Made by a program: the position numbers and the translations under genes
IMG/VR virus record: IMGVR_UViG_2579778894_000025
Span: 1 to 7,193 of that record
From: a virus
Taxonomy: Duplodnaviria; Heunggongvirae; Uroviricota; Caudoviricetes
Length of the DNA: 7,193 bases
Reading direction: 5' to 3' (one strand)
In this document: in pieces, positions 1 to 7,193 of the stretch
Layout: each line of letters opens with the position of its first letter
Position numbering within the stretch: the first letter of the stretch is position 1
The notes under the pieces: generated by a model
What the model saw: only the letters and a program-made list of their open reading frames with translations
Told to the model about the DNA's origin: nothing
The model's database searches: none

Positions 1-798
1 GTTAATGATTTCATGGATAGCGTCCACCATATTTGGTGTCCACTATTCTCTCAGGAATTTCAGGATCTGCCAGACGGTGCTGAGACGACGCTTACATCTG
101 AACGGGAAACAACAAAGAACCAGATCCGTGTCGCCTTGCCTGGCATTGTTCAGTCATTCGCTCCTGATGCGGTGACGGCGGTTGTACAGCCTGCTATCCG
201 TTACGTTGAAATTGATAACGACGGCAACCGCATTACCAAAAATTACCCATTGCTGGTGGATGTGCCAGTGGTATTCCCGCGTGGCGGAGGCTGTACGCTA
301 ACGTTTCCAGTTAAAGCCGGTGATGAATGTTTGGTGATTTTTGCCGATCGTTGTATTGATTTCTGGTGGCAGAGTGGCGGGATACAGGAGCCGGTCGATG
401 ACAGAATGCATGATTTATCGGATGCGTTTTGTATTGTCGGTCCCCAGTCGCAGGCAAGGAAGATTAGCGGTATTAATACCAGTGCCACACAGTTGCGTAG
501 TGATGACGGCAGCACCTATTTTGAGCTTAATCCTGATACCAGGAAAATTAAAATTGTCGCTCCGGGGGGCCTTGATGTGGTTGCCCCTCTGGCTGATTTT
601 TCTGAGAAAGTAACCATTCATGGCCTGTTAACCTGGATGGGAGGCATGGTGGGGTCTGTTGTTTCTGGTGTGGCTTCAAAAATCACTGGTGCTGTTGAGT
701 TTTTGGGTAGCGTGAAGGCTAACGGCAAGCCAATCGATGATACGCACACTCATGGTGGTGTTCAGCGCGGTGGAAGCAATACCGACGGAGTAAACTGA
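1..798 (+). CDS. Baseplate central spike protein (phage gpV / Mu gp45-like), possibly 5'-partial
   Basis: ORF track 13..798 (261 aa). The frame is open back to position 1 and no Shine-Dalgarno precedes ATG13, so the true start may lie upstream of the window. Central region (…LLVDVPVVFPRGGGCTLTFPVKAGDECLVIFADRCIDFWWQSGG…) resembles the OB-fold domain of gpV-type spikes; Gly-rich C-terminus ends …DDTHTHGGVQRGGSNTDGVN, resembling the His-containing apex of P2 gpV. Stop overlaps next start (TGATG, 796-800). Confidence 0.75.
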   Translation, partial: VNDFMDSVHHIWCPLFSQEFQDLPDGAETTLTSERETTKNQIRVALPGIVQSFAPDAVTAVVQPAIRYVEIDNDGNRITKNYPLLVDVPVVFPRGGGCTLTFPVKAGDECLVIFADRCIDFWWQSGGIQEPVDDRMHDLSDAFCIVGPQSQARKISGINTSATQLRSDDGSTYFELNPDTRKIKIVAPGGLDVVAPLADFSEKVTIHGLLTWMGGMVGSVVSGVASKITGAVEFLGSVKANGKPIDDTHTHGGVQRGGSNTDGVN

Positions 799-1151
799 TG
801 CGATACAGACGTGAAGACGCCGATGGCGATTATACCTTTGGCAGCGGTGATGACACTTGGCTGATTAACTCACCGGAGGCCGTGGCGCAGGCGGTAAAAA
901 CTCGATTCGAATTGTGGTATGGGCAATGGTTTCTCGACACCACCGAGGGGACTCCGTGGATCCAGTCCGTACTCGGTAAGCAGAAGCCGGAAACTTACAA
1001 CCTGGCGATCCGTAAGCGCATTCTGGAAACGCAGGGCGTTAAATCAATCCTCTCTTTCAATACGACGGTGGATACCACGACCCGACGTGTCATGTTTTCC
1101 GCTGAAATCGACACTCTCTATGGAATAACGACTGTTACATCGGAGGCGTAA
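798..1151 (+). CDS. Small baseplate protein (Mu gp46-position; gpW-like role inferred from synteny)
   Basis: ORF track 798..1151 (117 aa). GGAG at 787-790 upstream of ATG798. Start overlaps the upstream stop, and its own stop TAA (1148-1150) abuts ATG1151. Function assigned from position between gpV-like and gpJ-like genes, as in Mu/P2 baseplate modules; the sequence itself is not diagnostic to me. Confidence 0.6.
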   Translation: MRYRREDADGDYTFGSGDDTWLINSPEAVAQAVKTRFELWYGQWFLDTTEGTPWIQSVLGKQKPETYNLAIRKRILETQGVKSILSFNTTVDTTTRRVMFSAEIDTLYGITTVTSEA

Positions 1152-2350
1152 TGGCTCTGAACCTTGATTCTCTCGGTTTATCTGCAAAGGTAACCGCGGA
1201 GGGGATCAGTGCGCCTGATTATCAGACGATACTCAGCACCCTGATTAGCTATTTTCAGCAGATTTATGGCAGTGATGCCTACCTCGAACCGGACAGCAAA
1301 GACGGCCAGATGGTGGCTCTGATGGCGCTGGCGATTCATGATGCCAATAATATGGCGATAACTGTCTACAACTGTTTTTCACCGGCAACCGGCTATGGGG
1401 CTGCACTGACCAGTAACGTGAAAATAAATGGTATTTCACGTAAAGGCGCGACGAATTCTACGGTTGATTTGCTTCTTACAGGAACTGCCGGAACAACCAT
1501 CATTAATGGCAGCGTGAAAGACAGTAATAATGTGATATGGCGTTTGCCTGCTTCAGTGGTGGTCGGCGTGGATGGTACAGTGATGGTGACCGCAAAATGT
1601 TCCGTCAGTGGTGCAGTGGCGGCGCTGGCTGGAACTATCACTGAAATTAATACGCCAACCCGTGGCTGGGTTTCGGTAACCAATCCTGCTGCAGCTACTG
1701 TAGGCACTCCAGCAGAAACTGACGCGGAGTTACGTATCCGCCAGTCGCAAAGTGTTGCGTTGCCATCAATAACCCCATTTGAAGCACTGGATGGCGCTGT
1801 TTCTAATGTTACCGGTGTAACCCGCCACAAACTCTATGAAAACGATACTGGTTCGGAGGACGGCAACGGGTTACCGCCACACTCTGTTGCTGTAATTGTG
1901 GATGGCGGTGATGTAACGGATATTGCTCAGGCTATCAGAGGAAATAAAGGCCAGGGGACAGCCACTCACGGTACAACATCCGTTACGGTTCCGGATAAAT
2001 ACGGCAATCCCCATGTAATCAAATTCTCGCGTTCCAGTGATGTGCCTGTTTATGCCCGGATTAAATTAAAAGTTTTTACGGGTTATACCTCACAGATAGG
2101 GCAGCAGATCCAGCAGGCTATTTCCGACTATATCAATAGTCTGATGATTGGTGATTCGGTCCTTTTAAGTCGCATTTACTCACCGGCGAATCTTGGCGTG
2201 GTGAGTGGCGGGAATGCACGCTATTACGATATTCAGGAACTGACGATTGGGAAATCCCCGGGGGCTTTGTCGTCATCAAACATTGATATCAGATACAACG
2301 AATCTGCGTCCTGTACCCCGGAAAATATCGTTATAACGGTGGAGTCATGA
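1151..2350 (+). CDS. Baseplate J-like protein (P2 gpJ / Mu gp47 family)
   Basis: ORF track 1151..2350 (399 aa). GGAGG at 1142-1146, 4 nt before the ATG. Size and N-terminal character (MALNLDSLGLSAKVTAEGISAPDYQTILSTLISYF…) fit baseplate J family; position after gpV/gp46-like genes. Stop TGA (2348-2350) overlaps next start ATG2347 (ATGA). Confidence 0.75.
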   Translation: MALNLDSLGLSAKVTAEGISAPDYQTILSTLISYFQQIYGSDAYLEPDSKDGQMVALMALAIHDANNMAITVYNCFSPATGYGAALTSNVKINGISRKGATNSTVDLLLTGTAGTTIINGSVKDSNNVIWRLPASVVVGVDGTVMVTAKCSVSGAVAALAGTITEINTPTRGWVSVTNPAAATVGTPAETDAELRIRQSQSVALPSITPFEALDGAVSNVTGVTRHKLYENDTGSEDGNGLPPHSVAVIVDGGDVTDIAQAIRGNKGQGTATHGTTSVTVPDKYGNPHVIKFSRSSDVPVYARIKLKVFTGYTSQIGQQIQQAISDYINSLMIGDSVLLSRIYSPANLGVVSGGNARYYDIQELTIGKSPGALSSSNIDIRYNESASCTPENIVITVES

Positions 2351-3027
2351 GCAAATACACCGAACTAATCACAAACTACCACGCCACCAAACCTAAATTT
2401 CTTGCACATGTTGATCTGATGACCCGGCCACTTATTGATGTTGCGGCTGCCACCAGAGGGCTGATTACTGCATTTGATATTGACTCTGCGGTTGGTGTGC
2501 AACTTGACATTCTGGGATTGTGGATCGGACGTAGCCGTGTTGTCAGCCAGCCTATCTCAGGTGTCTATTTCAGCTGGGATACCGACGGGCTTGGATATGA
2601 TCAGGGGGTATGGCAGGGACCATACGATCCTGATTCAGGATACATGTACCTCAGCGATGAAACTTATCGTGTCATCCTTAAAGCGAAGATTGCGATTAAT
2701 AACTGGGACGGACGGAATGATTCGCTTCCGGCAATTCTTGACGCGGCAACAGCAGGATCCGGACTGCGAATGCAGATAGTCGATAACCATGACATGACGA
2801 TATCGGTCTGGGTCTTTCCTGATACTGATATTTCAGATGTATCGCGTGAGTTAATTGCGGCAATTAAACAGGGGTATCTCACAGTAAAAGCCGCCGGGGT
2901 ATGGGCGGGTGGCATTGAAACACCTTCGGTGGAAACCCCATCGGAAGGCTCAAAATTTTTTGGTTTTGATATGGATAACGAATTCATCAGTGGTTTTGAT
3001 GTAGGAGCATGGGGAGTATTACTCTGA
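2347..3027 (+). CDS. Tail/baseplate protein, gpI-like (Mu gp48 / e14 YmfQ-type, DUF2313-like)
   Basis: ORF track 2347..3027 (226 aa). ATGA overlap with upstream gene; stop TGA 3025-3027 overlaps the tail fiber start ATG3027 (TGATG). Assignment mainly by synteny, immediately upstream of the tail fiber gene as in Mu and e14. Confidence 0.65.
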   Translation: MSKYTELITNYHATKPKFLAHVDLMTRPLIDVAAATRGLITAFDIDSAVGVQLDILGLWIGRSRVVSQPISGVYFSWDTDGLGYDQGVWQGPYDPDSGYMYLSDETYRVILKAKIAINNWDGRNDSLPAILDAATAGSGLRMQIVDNHDMTISVWVFPDTDISDVSRELIAAIKQGYLTVKAAGVWAGGIETPSVETPSEGSKFFGFDMDNEFISGFDVGAWGVLL

Positions 3028-3659
3028 TGACGAAAAATGACTTTAAAGCGTTTGCAACGGATCGAAATGCCAATGTTATATCGCAGGAGGAATGGGAAGC
3101 GTTGCCCGCGCTTTTATCCGGATTTACAGCAGGGAAAGCATCCAGTGCGCAAGTCAATAAGGTTATTCGGCAGGCCAGCTTTATTGCTGCAGCTCTGGCC
3201 CAGTTTGTAAGTGATAAAACGCAACGGGATGTGCTTGATAATGGTGATCTGCCCGGTTTTGTTGAATTGCTGGGATCGGGGTTTGCTGTTGAATACCTGA
3301 GCCGCAAGAATCCGTTTGGTGATATCAAATCGGATGGCACGGTGAAAACGGCTCTCGAAAACCTTGGTTTTGGAGAAGGTGCTAACTGGGTTATGTTACC
3401 TGGAGGAATGATAATTCAGCGTGTTTATCTTGGATTTCCTGTCGGCACCAATGTAAGACACATAACTTTCCCCCGGTCGTTTACAACAACGAACTATTCA
3501 ATCTCAATTAACTGGAATGATATCGGTACTGCAACAACTGAAACACAATCTCCAGCAAATGTGGCGGTTGTTCATCAAACAAAATCATTAACAGGGGCCA
3601 GCATCTGGCAGGCAGGTCCCGGGGGATTTAATGTGGACATTATAGCGGTGGGGTATTGA
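3027..3659 (+). CDS. Tail fiber protein: constant N-terminal part (about 3027-3363) fused to variable C-terminal part inside the invertible segment (about 3366-3659)
   Basis: In-frame ATG3027 (MTKNDFKAFATDRNANVISQEEWEALP…) is preferred over the track's ATG3009 because it overlaps the upstream stop (TGATG) and has GGAG 10 nt upstream. 210 aa. A hix/gix-like crossover site lies at codons 109-117 (…TALENLGFGEG…). Confidence 0.8.
   Translation: MTKNDFKAFATDRNANVISQEEWEALPALLSGFTAGKASSAQVNKVIRQASFIAAALAQFVSDKTQRDVLDNGDLPGFVELLGSGFAVEYLSRKNPFGDIKSDGTVKTALENLGFGEGANWVMLPGGMIIQRVYLGFPVGTNVRHITFPRSFTTTNYSISINWNDIGTATTETQSPANVAVVHQTKSLTGASIWQAGPGGFNVDIIAVGY
3352..3377 (+). other. Site-specific inversion crossover site (hix/gix/pix-like), left
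   Basis: CTCTCGAAAACC-TT-GGTTTTGGAGAA: two 12-bp half-sites in inverted repeat (10/12 symmetric) around a 2-bp TT core, matching the remembered Hin/Gin/Cin/Pin site pattern TTnTCnAAAACC-NN-GGTTTnnGAnAA. Located inside the tail fiber ORF. Confidence 0.65.
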
Positions 3660-3786
3660 TATGTACGTATAGAGCACTAAAGCAAATGGCTTTTTCCCCA
3701 TATCGGAGAAAGAAAAATTTGAGGCATCAGGTCTGTGGCCTGATGATGGTGTAATAGTCAGTGAGGAAGAACATAAAAAGTTATTT

Positions 3787-4089
3787 ATGGATATTCCACC
3801 AGGAAAACAGATTGGAACACTGAATGGAAAACCAGCACTGATAGATATTCCTCAGCCGACCAAAAAGGAATTAATAGCTATTGCTGAAGTTAAAAAATCC
3901 CAATTACGGGAAAAAGCTGACAGTGAAATATCCTGGCGTCAGGATGCTGTTGATGCTGATATCGTAACTGATGAAGAAGCTACAAGTCTCACCCAATGGA
4001 AGAAATACCGTGTGCTGCTGATGCGTGTTGATACGTCAACAGCACCCGATATTGAATGGCCTACGCCTCCGGCAGTTCAGGCCAGATGA
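3787..4089 (+). CDS. Tail fiber assembly protein (Tfa family), apparently N-terminally truncated by an in-frame amber codon
   Basis: ORF track 3787..4089 (100 aa); C-terminus …EEATSLTQWKKYRVLLMRVDTSTAPDIEWPTPP is the conserved Tfa C-terminal motif. The same frame is open upstream to 3673 and encodes Tfa-like N-terminal sequence (STKANGFFPISEKEKFEASGLWPDDGVIVSEEE…), preceded by ATG3661-TAC-GTA-TAG(3670-3672). Confidence 0.7.
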   Translation: MDIPPGKQIGTLNGKPALIDIPQPTKKELIAIAEVKKSQLREKADSEISWRQDAVDADIVTDEEATSLTQWKKYRVLLMRVDTSTAPDIEWPTPPAVQAR

Positions 4090-4663
4090 CATCCGGCGCG
4101 GTGCTGGTATCTGTTGCCATCACCGCGTCAGTGTAATCCAGCACGGCGTTAAGGCGGGTGGTTTCTGCCTGCGTCAGCCTCCGCCCGGCCTGCAATTTCA
4201 GCTGAATCAGACTGATGGAAGCCATTGCTGCATCAATCAGTGACTGGCGCTGTGCTTCTGCCGCTTCGACTGCGGCGCTATGTTGTGCCTCAGCATCGGC
4301 CACCCATTTCTCACCATCCCATTTATCGTATGGCGTTAACGGTGCGAGAGTGGTTGTATTTTCGGGATAGTCGCCTGGTGCTGTGATTTCTTTGGCATCT
4401 CCCGTTTCGGTGTTATAGACAATTTCACCGCGATGGTCTGGTACATATTCCCATGAGTTAAAATCTGCTGAGCGGCAGATAGCATAACCAGCCTTATGTG
4501 TGCCAGGGGCATCCAAACAAGAAAATGCTGGGATACCGACGCCAACAGCAAGATATTCAGTTGATGTAGAAATATATTCTCGTGTTTCACCATCATAATT
4601 ATAAACGGTAATATCTCCCGCCTTTGTGGCGATGAGTTCCTTATTTAATATAGCTTTATCCAT
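4061..4663 (-). CDS. Tail fiber assembly protein (Tfa family, full length), partner of the alternative fiber C-terminus
   Basis: ORF track 4061..4663 (200 aa); C-terminus …RLNAVLDYTDAVMATDTSTAPDVIWPELPEA is the conserved Tfa motif. Start overlaps the stop of the upstream - strand fiber segment (TGATG). GAGGG lies about 10 nt upstream on the - strand. Confidence 0.85.
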   Translation of the reverse strand: MDKAILNKELIATKAGDITVYNYDGETREYISTSTEYLAVGVGIPAFSCLDAPGTHKAGYAICRSADFNSWEYVPDHRGEIVYNTETGDAKEITAPGDYPENTTTLAPLTPYDKWDGEKWVADAEAQHSAAVEAAEAQRQSLIDAAMASISLIQLKLQAGRRLTQAETTRLNAVLDYTDAVMATDTSTAPDVIWPELPEA

Positions 4664-5172
4664 CAGGCAGCCCTCACGATATAATTAAAGGCAATGTTAC
4701 GGGGTCGATTTTCGTTTGCAGTTGGAACAATTCTTGAAGCATCAAGGCCAATCACTTTTGGGTAAACAGCGCCATCTGTTCTTTCTGTCACCATACTTCT
4801 GGTTAAGGAGAAATAACTATTGTTCGTTGAGGGGTTCAAAGGCACTACTGCCCCCTTAAACGAGCCTACTGATTCCCATATTGAATAATTTTCGGTGTTT
4901 ACAGTCTTGAACTCACCATAGATATTACGTATGGCATCGCCCTGAGCGGATAATATTGTTCTCCCCGCATCCGCACTACGCCCATCATCCCAGCCACGAA
5001 TAAATTCACCGCGTAAATCAGGCAATTTATTTGTCGGGTAAGCCTTTGCCAGTTCCGGGTATTCTTCAGCAGAAAAAGCCGCACCATTGCATTTCAGCCA
5101 GCCTGTCGGCGGAGTGGCGTAAGGCCACGGAACAGGCACACCGACAGGTAATGCAGAGCCTTCTCCCAAACC
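4663..5172 (-). CDS. Alternative tail fiber C-terminal variable segment with collar-type end; promoterless gene segment expressed only after inversion
   Basis: - strand frame open from the crossover site; from the site inward it reads GLGEGSALPVGVPVPWPYATPPTGWLKCNGAAFSAEEYPELAKAYPTNKLPDLRGEFIRGWDDGRSADAGR…NIAFNYIVRAA, typical of phage tail-fiber collar C-termini (lambda Stf / P2 H-like ending). The track's Met at 5214 has no RBS and lies beyond the crossover site, so it is not taken as a real start. Confidence 0.75.
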   Translation of the reverse strand, partial: GLGEGSALPVGVPVPWPYATPPTGWLKCNGAAFSAEEYPELAKAYPTNKLPDLRGEFIRGWDDGRSADAGRTILSAQGDAIRNIYGEFKTVNTENYSIWESVGSFKGAVVPLNPSTNNSYFSLTRSMVTERTDGAVYPKVIGLDASRIVPTANENRPRNIAFNYIVRAA

Positions 5173-5186
5173 AACGTTTAAGAAAA
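5161..5186 (-). other. Site-specific inversion crossover site (hix/gix/pix-like), right, inverted relative to the left site
   Basis: Read on the - strand: TTTTCTTAAACG-TT-GGTTTGGGAGAA; 20/26 identical to the left site (hand alignment), with the same TT core and the same downstream GG-GAG-AAG-G coding GEG. Lies 56 bp upstream of the pin start. Confidence 0.6.
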
Positions 5187-5241
5187 TGCAGAGGTAACAG
5201 CTAACTGGCATCATCTCCGGTTTTTATTCAGGGGGATGATC

Positions 5242-5796
5242 ATGCTTATTGGCTATGTACGTGTGTCAACAAATGACCAGAACACAGACCTACAACGTAA
5301 TGCGCTGAACTGTGCAGGATGTGAGCTGATTTTTGAAGACAAGATAAGCGGTACAAAGTCCGAAAGGCCTGGACTGAAAAAACTGCTCAGGACATTATCG
5401 GCAGGTGACACGCTGGTGGTCTGGAAACTGGACCGGCTGGGGCGCAGTATGCGGCATCTTGTCGTGCTGGTGGAGGAGTTGCGCGAACGAGGCATCAACT
5501 TTCGTAGTCTGACTGATTCAATTGATACCAGCACACCAATGGGACGCTTTTTCTTCCATGTGATGGGTGCCCTGGCTGAAATGGAACGTGAACTGATTGT
5601 TGAACGAACAAAAGCAGGACTGGAAGCTGCTCGCGCACAGGGACGAATTGGTGGACGACGTCCCAAACTTACACCAGAACAATGGGCACAGGCCGGACGA
5701 TTAATTGCATCAGGAGTTCCTCGCCAGAAGGTGGCGATCATCTATGATGTTGGCATATCGACTTTGTATAAGAGGTTTCCGGTCGGAGATAAATGA
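5242..5796 (+). CDS. pin: Serine DNA invertase, Hin/Gin/Cin/Pin family
   Basis: ORF track 5236..5796; start refined to ATG5242 (MLIGYVRVSTNDQ…, 184 aa) with GGGGGA 6 nt upstream. Small serine recombinase hallmarks: catalytic Ser9 in VRVSTNDQ, conserved DRLGRS and GRFFFHVMGALAEMERELIVERT segments, C-terminal helix-turn-helix (QKVAIIYDVGISTLYKRF). Strong resemblance to Hin/Gin from memory. Confidence 0.9.
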   Translation: MLIGYVRVSTNDQNTDLQRNALNCAGCELIFEDKISGTKSERPGLKKLLRTLSAGDTLVVWKLDRLGRSMRHLVVLVEELRERGINFRSLTDSIDTSTPMGRFFFHVMGALAEMERELIVERTKAGLEAARAQGRIGGRRPKLTPEQWAQAGRLIASGVPRQKVAIIYDVGISTLYKRFPVGDK

Positions 5797-6100
5797 AACC
5801 GTAGCACGTCGTATGCAAGAACGTGCCACGGCTGGCTGATGGACGTTCGATAGCGCGAGTTTGAATGAAAATCAGCCGGAGATGATTTTACATAATTGCT
5901 ACGGAATTATTCAATAAAGGAATTGCTTGTGTCTGCATGGATTGACCTGAAATATTCCCGAAAATTTCTCTAAAAAACTCGAAAAAAATGGTAACTAATT
6001 GAATGTATTAATATGCAATGGTACGTGTTAGGGATTAAAAGATGAACGTAAATTTATTCAACGCATTAATTTTAAAGGGTTTTATTGTTTGTTGACGAAA

Positions 6101-6126
6101 ACAGGAATCGTGTTCGGTCTCTTTTT
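6101..6126 (+). ncRNA. sdsR: Putative 3'-terminal remnant of sRNA SdsR (RyeB), ending in a U-tract; the upstream part does not match
   Basis: ACAGGAATCGTGTTCGGTCTCTTTTT matches, to within one base, the 3' end of E. coli SdsR as I remember it (…ACAGGAAUCGUAUUCGGUCUCUUUUU). The upstream sequence does not match the remembered SdsR body. Position upstream of pphA on the same strand agrees with the K-12 locus order yebY-sdsR/ryeA-pphA. Memory-based, not verified. Confidence 0.35.
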
Positions 6127-6260
6127 ATCTGTTAAAAGCCAGAAGCATTTCCTTCGCTGACTTTATAGTCAACCATAACACACACTCTACTGTCTGAGTC
6201 CAGCGTTTTTTAACATTCTTGTTAAGATTATGTGATCTTTAGCGCGGGAGGAAAATATTG

Positions 6261-6917
6261 ATGAAACAGCCTGCGCCCGTTTATCAGAGAATTGCGGGTC
6301 ATCAATGGCGACATATCTGGCTTTCTGGCGATATACACGGTTGTCTTGAGCAGTTGCGCCGCAAATTATGGCATTGTGGTTTTGATCCGTGGCGAGATTT
6401 ACTTATCTCAGTGGGAGACGTTATCGATCGTGGGCCGCAAAGTTTACGTTGCCTGCAGTTACTGGAACAACATTGGGTTCGTGCGGTAAGAGGCAATCAT
6501 GAACAGATGGCGATGGATGCGCTGGCATCCCAGCAGATGTCTTTGTGGTTGATGAATGGCGGCGACTGGTTTATTGCGCTGGCAGATAATCAACAGAAAC
6601 AAGCGAAAACGGCGCTGGAAAAATGTCAGCATTTGCCCTTTATTCTTGAAGTACACAGTCGTACCGGCAAACATGTTATTGCTCATGCCGATTATCCAGA
6701 TGATGTTTATGAATGGCAAAAGGACGTTGATTTGCATCAGGTCTTGTGGAGCCGCTCGCGATTAGGTGAACGCCAAAAAGGGCAGGGAATTACAGGTGCT
6801 GATCATTTCTGGTTTGGTCATACACCGTTGCGACATCGCGTGGATATTGGCAACCTGCATTATATTGATACCGGTGCTGTCTTTGGGGGCGAACTGACTC
6901 TTGTGCAATTGCAATAA
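6261..6917 (+). CDS. pphA: Serine/threonine protein phosphatase 1 (PPP-family metallophosphatase)
   Basis: ORF track 6258..6917 uses TTG; ATG6261 (MKQPAPVYQRIAGHQWRHIWLSGDIHGCLEQL…, 218 aa) is preferred, with GGGAGG at 6246-6251. PPP-family motifs GDIHG, GDVIDRG and GNHE are present. Sequence matches E. coli PphA/PrpA as I recall it. Confidence 0.85.
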   Translation: MKQPAPVYQRIAGHQWRHIWLSGDIHGCLEQLRRKLWHCGFDPWRDLLISVGDVIDRGPQSLRCLQLLEQHWVRAVRGNHEQMAMDALASQQMSLWLMNGGDWFIALADNQQKQAKTALEKCQHLPFILEVHSRTGKHVIAHADYPDDVYEWQKDVDLHQVLWSRSRLGERQKGQGITGADHFWFGHTPLRHRVDIGNLHYIDTGAVFGGELTLVQLQ

Positions 6918-7109
6918 TTAAAAATCACCATACTCCTGTGCTGGTCGCCAGAAACCATCTATAAAATCCTCAATCGGAAAACAACCGCCATGGCGGATCC
7001 GTTGATCGCTCATAGAATAAAGACACTGCTGTTCCGTGTTGTAGACATCCACAACAATATCTTCACAACCGCCATCCAGGTAGCAAACAAAAAGTACCAG
7101 CGCGAACAT
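6918..7109 (-). CDS. yebW: Small hypothetical protein, convergent with pphA; consistent with YebW (63 aa) by size and neighbourhood
   Basis: - strand ORF ending at 6918. Track gives 91 aa from an ATG at the window edge (7193), but the internal Met (MFALVLFVCYLDGGCEDIVVDVYNTEQQ…, 63 aa) matches the remembered length of K-12 YebW, which neighbours pphA. Symbol assigned from context and length, not from sequence recognition. Confidence 0.45.
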   Translation of the reverse strand: MFALVLFVCYLDGGCEDIVVDVYNTEQQCLYSMSDQRIRHGGCFPIEDFIDGFWRPAQEYGDF

Positions 7110-7193
7110 TTCATCCCCGAAGTGTGGTGCCGTACCGTTAAGTTTAGGAGAGATTTTACAACGGGGGAATAACCAGGACAAATAACCCGCCAT

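Follow-up and report, generated by a model that had tools for sequence, protein, structure and literature searches.

A prophage end beside pphA is very probably the attR of a lambdoid phage integrated in the terminator of the small RNA gene sdsR

The segment at positions 5797–6260 of a viral DNA stretch of 7,193 nucleotides (IMG/VR record IMGVR_UViG_2579778894_000025, positions 1 to 7,193; the whole stretch is called the window below) is very probably attR, the right end of a temperate lambdoid prophage of about 43 kb that is integrated in the Rho-independent terminator of sdsR (ryeB). With the same high confidence we assign to this prophage a tyrosine integrase of the lambda/HK022 type, an early region like that of Rac and a late region that codes for a contractile tail and ends with pin. 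As the window stops short of the other prophage end, attL and int were inspected in close relatives, which are complete genomes 97–99.8% identical to it.

A preliminary description of the window had placed a prophage-host junction after pin, with no further phage gene and only about 460 bp of AT-rich DNA before host pphA, and this held. The gap between pin and pphA (5797–6260) is 464 bp long and has a GC content of 36.9%, compared to 47.3% for the whole window, with values down to 30–31% over 5900–6124. The two largest open reading frames listed for the gap, of 44 aa and 39 aa, each overlap the 3' end of pin, and those entirely within the gap are at most 25 aa long. The P arm of the phage attachment site (5834–6100) has 33% GC and contains no open reading frame of 40 aa or more. 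Small frames of 25 aa (5896–5973), 23 aa (6089–6160) and 17 aa (with an ATG at 6043) were considered as genes and rejected, all of them being short; the frame of the 17-aa candidate is truncated in phage pPE4. The features of the junction are as follows.

5236–5796, plus strand: pin-type serine DNA invertase gene, the last phage gene before the junction (Pfam Resolvase N-terminal domain, 174.7 bits, plus HTH_7; annotated pinE in relatives)
5797–5833, no strand assigned: conserved hairpin, the left boundary of the att module (fold and compensatory stem changes in relatives)
5834–6100, no strand assigned: phage P arm of the attachment site, the left arm of attP and now in attR (absent from K-12; contiguous with the P' arm in PP818812.1)
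5956–5993, plus strand: candidate arm-type Int binding repeats TCCCGAAAATTT ... ACTCGAAAAAAA (27-nt direct repeat common to the P and P' arms of attP)
6101–6111, no strand assigned: strand-exchange interval ACAGGAATCGT (terminator loop AGGAATC plus 2 stem nt on either side)
6101–6126, plus strand: SdsR 3'-end relic that retains the terminator loop, the 3' arm of the stem and the U-tract (exact K-12 match; hairpin fold lost)
6101–6127, no strand assigned: att core common to attB, attP, attL and attR (27 bp with 1–2 polymorphic positions in a four-way alignment)
6261–6917, plus strand: host pphA (K-12 annotation plus Pfam Metallophos)

The 26 nt at 6101–6126 had been read as the 3' end of SdsR with its U-tract, and the DNA upstream as unlike the body of SdsR. 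Both statements were borne out. The 26-mer ACAGGAATCGTGTTCGGTCTCTTTTT occurs once in the window, on the plus strand, and corresponds without a mismatch to the final 26 nt of K-12 sdsR (L001 1506–1531, where a full-length Rfam match to SdsR_RyeB at 1432–1531 ends). From 6101 to 6260 the window is identical to K-12 at 160/160 positions, and the identity continues up to pphA. The BLAST block 6096–6260 is 99.4% identical to K-12 with its sole mismatch at 6100, which sets the breakpoint that alignment to K-12 had been expected to locate: host identity begins at 6101. To the left, the DNA of 5797–6100 is absent from K-12, alignment revealed no resemblance to the SdsR body upstream of 6101, and the SdsR_RyeB model (Rfam RF00111, gathering score 38 bits) had no match in the window at E≤1; the controls scored 114.4 bits in K-12 and 116.4 bits at attL. 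The SraC_RyeA model (RF00101) gave a sub-threshold partial match in the window (25.3 bits against a gathering score of 37), which runs from 6130 to 6010 and aligns well at model positions of about 1–40 only, compared to 175–179 bits for its controls.

It is hardly credible that the similarity to SdsR is a coincidence, or that the window carries a divergent native allele of sdsR. The match is short, and nothing else speaks for either explanation. A chance resemblance is opposed by the shuffled sequences, 0/200 of which matched the 26-mer with 3 mismatches permitted, and by the uninterrupted 160 nt of K-12 identity that follows. A native allele does not agree with the distribution of the two flanks, since the right flank (6096–6260) was found by BLAST in all 5426 complete E. 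coli genomes while 5797–6260 was found nearly full-length, phage arm included, in 228 of them; furthermore, an intact sdsR lies 43 kb away in the relatives. The sequence at 6101–6126 is derived from sdsR, and it is neither a gene nor a working terminator, a 26-nt relic alone. The stem of the SdsR terminator is GGACCGAATAC / GTGTTCGGTCT, with the loop AGGAATC. At attL this hairpin folds with −15.8 kcal/mol, equal to K-12, and at attR, where phage sequence replaces the 5' stem arm, the site folds with −4.9 kcal/mol (z 0.47). A scan of 5600–6400 found no terminator-like site, whereas in K-12 and at attL it does detect the stem of 11 bp. Examination of 6088–6128 (plus strand) for a Rho-independent terminator likewise revealed no hairpin spanning the site before the U-tract.

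The other end of the prophage, at which an intact copy of sdsR and a direct repeat of the core had been proposed, was found in the relatives IGC_RcoliRes_1.1 and PEC209, and both elements are there. IGC_RcoliRes_1.1 is 99.8% identical to the window over 5797–6260. Its gene order from the host side is yebY, an intact sdsR, a tyrosine integrase gene reading toward sdsR and an excisionase gene, followed by the Rac-like early genes ralR, bet/exo, recE and kilR, and then by lysis, head and contractile-tail genes, pinE, the junction and pphA. The spacer between yebY and int contains a full-length SdsR according to Rfam (116.4 bits), the last 27 bp of which repeat the core of the window except for a single G-to-A change. 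Over the whole window the best relative is PEC209 (97.2% identity), which has the same layout of yebY-sdsR-int-xis...pin-core-pphA. In both lysogens int and xis adjoin attL, and the direct repeats of the core are spaced by 42,564 bp in IGC_RcoliRes_1.1 and by 43,206 bp in PEC209. The core repeat with an intact sdsR at the other prophage end was also present in 20 IMG/VR attL junctions. The proposed insertion into an sRNA gene, sdsR, held in every element and can be refined on one point: sdsR itself appears unbroken, having been regenerated at attL, and the disconnected genes would instead be ryeA and the sdsR-pphA read-through unit.

We also considered whether this prophage is KingRac or Nef, the transferable phages of IGC_RcoliRes. 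The published sites of these phages are ttcA and ssrA, and it is thus a third prophage. Several sRNA genes of the IGC_RcoliRes_1.1 prophage reach at least the Rfam gathering score, namely RalA, DicF, sok, isrK and C4/a1b1 (L003 11598–11776, 16774–16825, 23986–24159 and 26328–26526), a set that fits a Rac-like lambdoid early region.

The attP of such a phage was found by means of a synthetic query in which the window phage arm 5900–6111 was joined to the P' arm of attL. This query matched the phage record PP818812.1 at 46079–46468 as one contiguous segment (99% coverage, 91.8% identity), and the integrase encoded directly beside it is 98% identical to the lysogen Int. Megablast of pin plus the P arm against the phage collection had returned pin homologues only; attP emerged with the synthetic P+P' query in distant mode. 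The record (PP818812.1 46079–47508) is named 'Actinobacillus phage vB_Apl-pPE4'. Its attP is built on the enterobacterial sdsR terminator and its Int shares 98% identity with the Int of E. coli prophages, and the stated Actinobacillus host looks incongruent with this att site. The empty site is common: a 271-nt K-12 probe spanning attB was uninterrupted in 5189/5426 complete E. coli genomes and was broken at the core end in 237/5426.

The proposal that an integrase made the insertion is upheld by the empty site, the attL beside a tyrosine integrase gene in relatives and the contiguous attP. It is very improbable that homologous recombination, transposition or Pin did so, with the 26-nt match as the edge of a replaced segment. 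A serine recombinase gene, pin, does lie 300 bp from the junction, but Pin-family invertases act on inverted sites inside the phage, which we count against an insertion made by Pin. No IS element and no target-site duplication were found at the junction, the core recurs in direct orientation at each end of the prophage, genes for a tyrosine integrase and an excisionase adjoin attL, and in attP the P arm runs on through the core into P'. The pattern of polymorphism across the junctions, given below, is moreover that of a reciprocal site-specific exchange.

We regard it as unlikely, though less so, that the element is a decayed, immobile remnant or island whose integrase is lost or dead in the source strain, so that attR is a mere scar. 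The window displays one end of the element only, the PEC209 prophage contains an IS1 and a frameshifted DUF977 gene, and IS3 and IS4 occur in other relatives. Against decay, the host flank 6101–6260 is 100% identical to K-12, the P arm shares 99.8% identity with its counterpart in a lysogen whose int, xis, lysis, head and tail modules are all complete, and a deposited phage genome contains an att-int module that is almost the same. Should the element be such a remnant after all, the junction would still have this origin and anatomy.

For integration by the integrase, the point of strand exchange can be bounded with a host/phage difference in the core. The core contexts of the two parental sites are given here.

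attB (K-12): GACCGAAT ACAGGAATCGT G TTCGGTCTCTTTTTA TCTGTT
attP: GACGAAA ACAGGAATCGT A TTCGGTCT(T/C)TTTTTA ATTGTA

We compared 31 IMG/VR junctions, comprising 8 attR of this phage, 3 attR of other phages beside the E. coli flank and 20 attL. At position 6112 the host G was found in 11/11 attR junctions, and 20/20 attL junctions have the phage A there, as does attP. All of the attR junctions (11/11, IMG/VR contigs) have the host G..C, and both complete lysogens agree with this pattern. On the left flank, the switch from host to phage is at 6100. Because attR keeps the host G, attL has the phage A and the left switch is at 6100, both strand exchanges must have occurred within ACAGGAATCGT (6101–6111). 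By analogy with lambda-family recombination, the two stem arms of the terminator would be natural candidates for inverted core-type Int sites. At 85 bp from the core, the P' arm holds a degenerate repeat of the core's right half, GTATTCCGGTCTTTTTTGG (L003 10100–10118; L004 3296–3306), possibly an additional core-type site or the remains of an earlier att.

The lysogen Int has Phage_integrase, Phage_int_M and lambda Arm-DNA-bind_1 domains (the last PF09003, 28.1 bits) and shares 41% identity with HK022 Int. Both P and P' contain a direct repeat of 27 nt, CCCGAAATT...ACTCGAA, whose copy in the window is at 5956–5993, and P' contains three tandem CCCGAAATT-like units. The block 5955–6005 is nearly invariant across 12 relatives, and 6040–6090 is variable. 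An exact IHF consensus lies in P' at 11 bp from the core. The P arm in the window has a cluster of four one-mismatch IHF-like sites, which is weak as the arm is AT-rich. Judged by their sequence, the arm repeats and IHF matches are candidate binding sites, statistically weak within the window alone.

In lambda and HK022, Int and attP work with arm-type sites, IHF and a 7-bp overlap flanked by inverted core sites, and sib/tI lies beyond att. The present module resembles these in the lambda arm-binding domain and HK022 likeness of its Int, in its AT-rich arms, in motifs repeated on both sides of the core, in the IHF consensus in P' and in a strong hairpin beyond the core. It differs in its target, an sRNA terminator rather than the gal-bio intergenic site, and in the extent of core identity, which is 26–27 bp rather than 15 bp. 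On this model, Int, probably together with IHF, would bind arm-type sites in P and P', both of them AT-rich, and would also bind core-type sites made by both arms of the terminator stem. Strand exchange would then take place within the terminator loop (6101–6111). The phage would bring its own copy of the 3' half of the terminator, such that sdsR would be rebuilt at attL beside int, and attR would be left with the loop, the 3' stem arm and the U-tract only, fused to phage DNA on the left. At attR the promoter of ryeA would remain with the initial 64 nt of RyeA, and transcription from it would enter the phage arm.

The att module begins with the hairpin that directly follows pin (5797–5833). 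On the minus strand it has a 14 bp stem and folds with −21.5 kcal/mol (z −4.2), and on the plus strand with −15.5 kcal/mol (z −1.0). The relatives carry different genes upstream of it. Among six variants, 4/6 fold better on the minus strand and 2/6 on the plus strand, a preference that reflects the asymmetry of G.U and A.C pairs and is not decisive, and a U-rich tail is not conserved among relatives. In the attP layout this hairpin lies beyond the core relative to int, which is the position of lambda sib/tI, and by that analogy it is possibly a sib/tI-like element. It may be a putative leftward terminator, either for int read-through in attP or for a chimeric RyeA transcript in the lysogen. 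On the hairpin after pin (5770–5830), Rfam gives a sub-threshold match to the 3' hairpin of the Shigella sRNA CssrB (29.6 bits against a gathering score of 76).

RyeA starts about 38–39 nt past the SdsR 3' end, and its 3' ends are at +261 to +270 (Choi et al. 2019, PMC6610125). We mapped the ryeA start from these published relative coordinates to L001 1569, which is window position ~6164 on the minus strand. With the start at L001 1569 the published RyeA 3' ends land exactly on the U-tract of the yebY-side terminator. The preliminary description had expected the start on the minus strand between 6127 and 6260, with transcription into phage DNA, and the mapped position falls in this interval. 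Two further features follow from it.

6101–6164, minus strand: native first 64 nt of RyeA, with the promoter still attached (identical to native RyeA, diverging beyond 6101)
6165–6244, minus strand: ryeA sigma-70 promoter region, −80 to −1 from the mapped start, in host DNA (100% K-12; fragment defined in PMC6610125)

A consensus promoter scan missed the known ryeA promoter even in K-12, and its hits in the P arm were therefore given no weight. A chimeric transcript, RyeA', would run from ~6164 into the phage P arm. It plausibly ends at the hairpin 5797–5833, for a predicted length of ~370 nt, and only 26 nt of complementarity to SdsR, itself ~102 nt long, would remain. The sdsR copy at attL would in turn be without a convergent antisense promoter, and pphA would be ~43 kb away from the sdsR promoter that normally drives it. 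RyeA degrades SdsR, ryeA transcription interferes with sdsR transcription, and the main source of pphA mRNA is the sdsR promoter, by read-through (PMC6610125). On account of these findings, we predict that the lysogen lacks full-length RyeA of 272 nt, has earlier or higher SdsR and has pphA off its main promoter, with less pphA mRNA in stationary phase.

At attL, int (L003 10164–11240, minus strand) is transcribed toward sdsR (9933–10032), and a scan of the int strand found no terminator-like site between int and the core. Read-through from int at attL could be antisense to SdsR and a partial stand-in for the lost RyeA. As a replacement antisense promoter at attL, a weak TTGCAA-15 nt-TACAAT was seen by eye and was not reported by the scan. 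The SraC_RyeA model scores full length at attL (L003 9892–10036, 178.9 bits) although the ryeA promoter and start are 42.6 kb away at attR, because this 145-nt model omits the true 5' end and the promoter. This is a pitfall for annotation, as Rfam scores both sRNAs as intact at attL and RyeA would be miscalled intact in lysogens.

The preliminary description named the ryeA/ryeB locus as an insertion hot spot in enterobacteria, and published work bears this out: Balbontin et al. 2008 (J Bacteriol 190:4075), as cited in PMC7380047, PMC3333887 and PMC3603311, describe it as such and as an att site for present-day phages in Salmonella. According to the account of Balbontin 2008 given in PMC7380047, the last 23 bp of ryeB serve phages of Salmonella as an att site and are a hot spot of insertion, and in lysogens of Salmonella PhiW104 ryeA expression is down and that of ryeB is up. 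A later survey has ryeB among the sRNA targets of prophages (PMC3603311), and an island-naming scheme uses RyeB as the site label of a Citrobacter prophage (PMC10111431). Among the papers that we searched, none described this E. coli prophage family at the sdsR site. Many elements unrelated to one another use this core, which an IMG/VR scan detected in at least 120 viral contigs; these have over 14 distinct left arms and over 25 distinct right arms, among them three further phage arms beside the E. coli flank. The sopE-carrying Salmonella element OK490361.1 has a related att-int module, whose Int is 74% identical to the E. coli lysogen Int.

PhiW104 and the similar Salmonella enterica cases share with ours the locus, an sdsR terminator internal to ryeA, the regeneration of sdsR and the replacement of the 5' part of ryeA. 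In our case, however, the host is E. coli and the phage belongs to a ~43 kb family that combines pin and genes for a contractile tail with an early region resembling that of Rac. The E. coli core has a G/A difference between host and phage that permits the crossover to be bounded, and prevalence was measured, at 237/5426 complete genomes. Integrators into the 3' part of tRNA and tmRNA genes, as PMC3603311 recounts them from Williams 2002, are alike in that the core-type sites come from a dyad-symmetric stem-loop of a conserved RNA gene, strands cross over around a loop of 7 nt, and the phage brings in the 3' segment, such that the gene is rebuilt at attL with a 3' relic at attR. In terms of that account, the stem-loop here is instead a transcription terminator, not an anticodon or T arm, and the locus is bidirectional, such that sdsR is rebuilt, yet ryeA is truncated and the sdsR-pphA read-through operon is broken.

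The phenomenon was thus already published for Salmonella (2008), and the one described here is an ordinary E. coli case of a known kind. What it contributes is a further host and phage family, a measured prevalence, the attP and a crossover interval of 11 bp, and no new principle. It provides a clear E. coli case of a phage that uses an sRNA terminator as its attachment site, as others use tRNA genes. RyeA and the sdsR-pphA transcription unit are broken in 237/5426 complete genomes though sdsR is rebuilt, with the effects on RNA being predicted ones.

A more far-reaching reading, that lysogeny rewires the SdsR/RyeA pair and pphA and links host physiology to prophage stability, we consider doubtful, with a small chance of being correct. 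If it were true, SdsR, which has been described as a toxin, would be deprived of its cis antitoxin RyeA, and pphA of its sigma-S-driven read-through promoter. The host sigma-70 promoter of ryeA, being still active, would fire a chimeric RNA over the Int/Xis/IHF sites of attR to the sib-like hairpin, and excision or SdsR levels could depend on growth phase in a new way. Such rewiring would concern ~4% of E. coli strains, those with this prophage family.

A minor set of observations concerns the DNA upstream of the junction. The sequence TTCTCCCAAACCAACGTTTAAGAAAA at 5161–5186, just upstream of pin, resembles the hix/gix-type crossover sites of invertases; a search that tolerated up to 3 mismatches gave neither a partner site nor an inverted repeat for it. 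Rfam IS009 has a sub-threshold match within the tail-fibre region (3857–4040, 43.6 bits against a gathering score of 117). The tail-fibre and tfa segment (3383–5160) differs from that of IGC_RcoliRes_1.1, and 3900–4344 is inverted relative to that strain.
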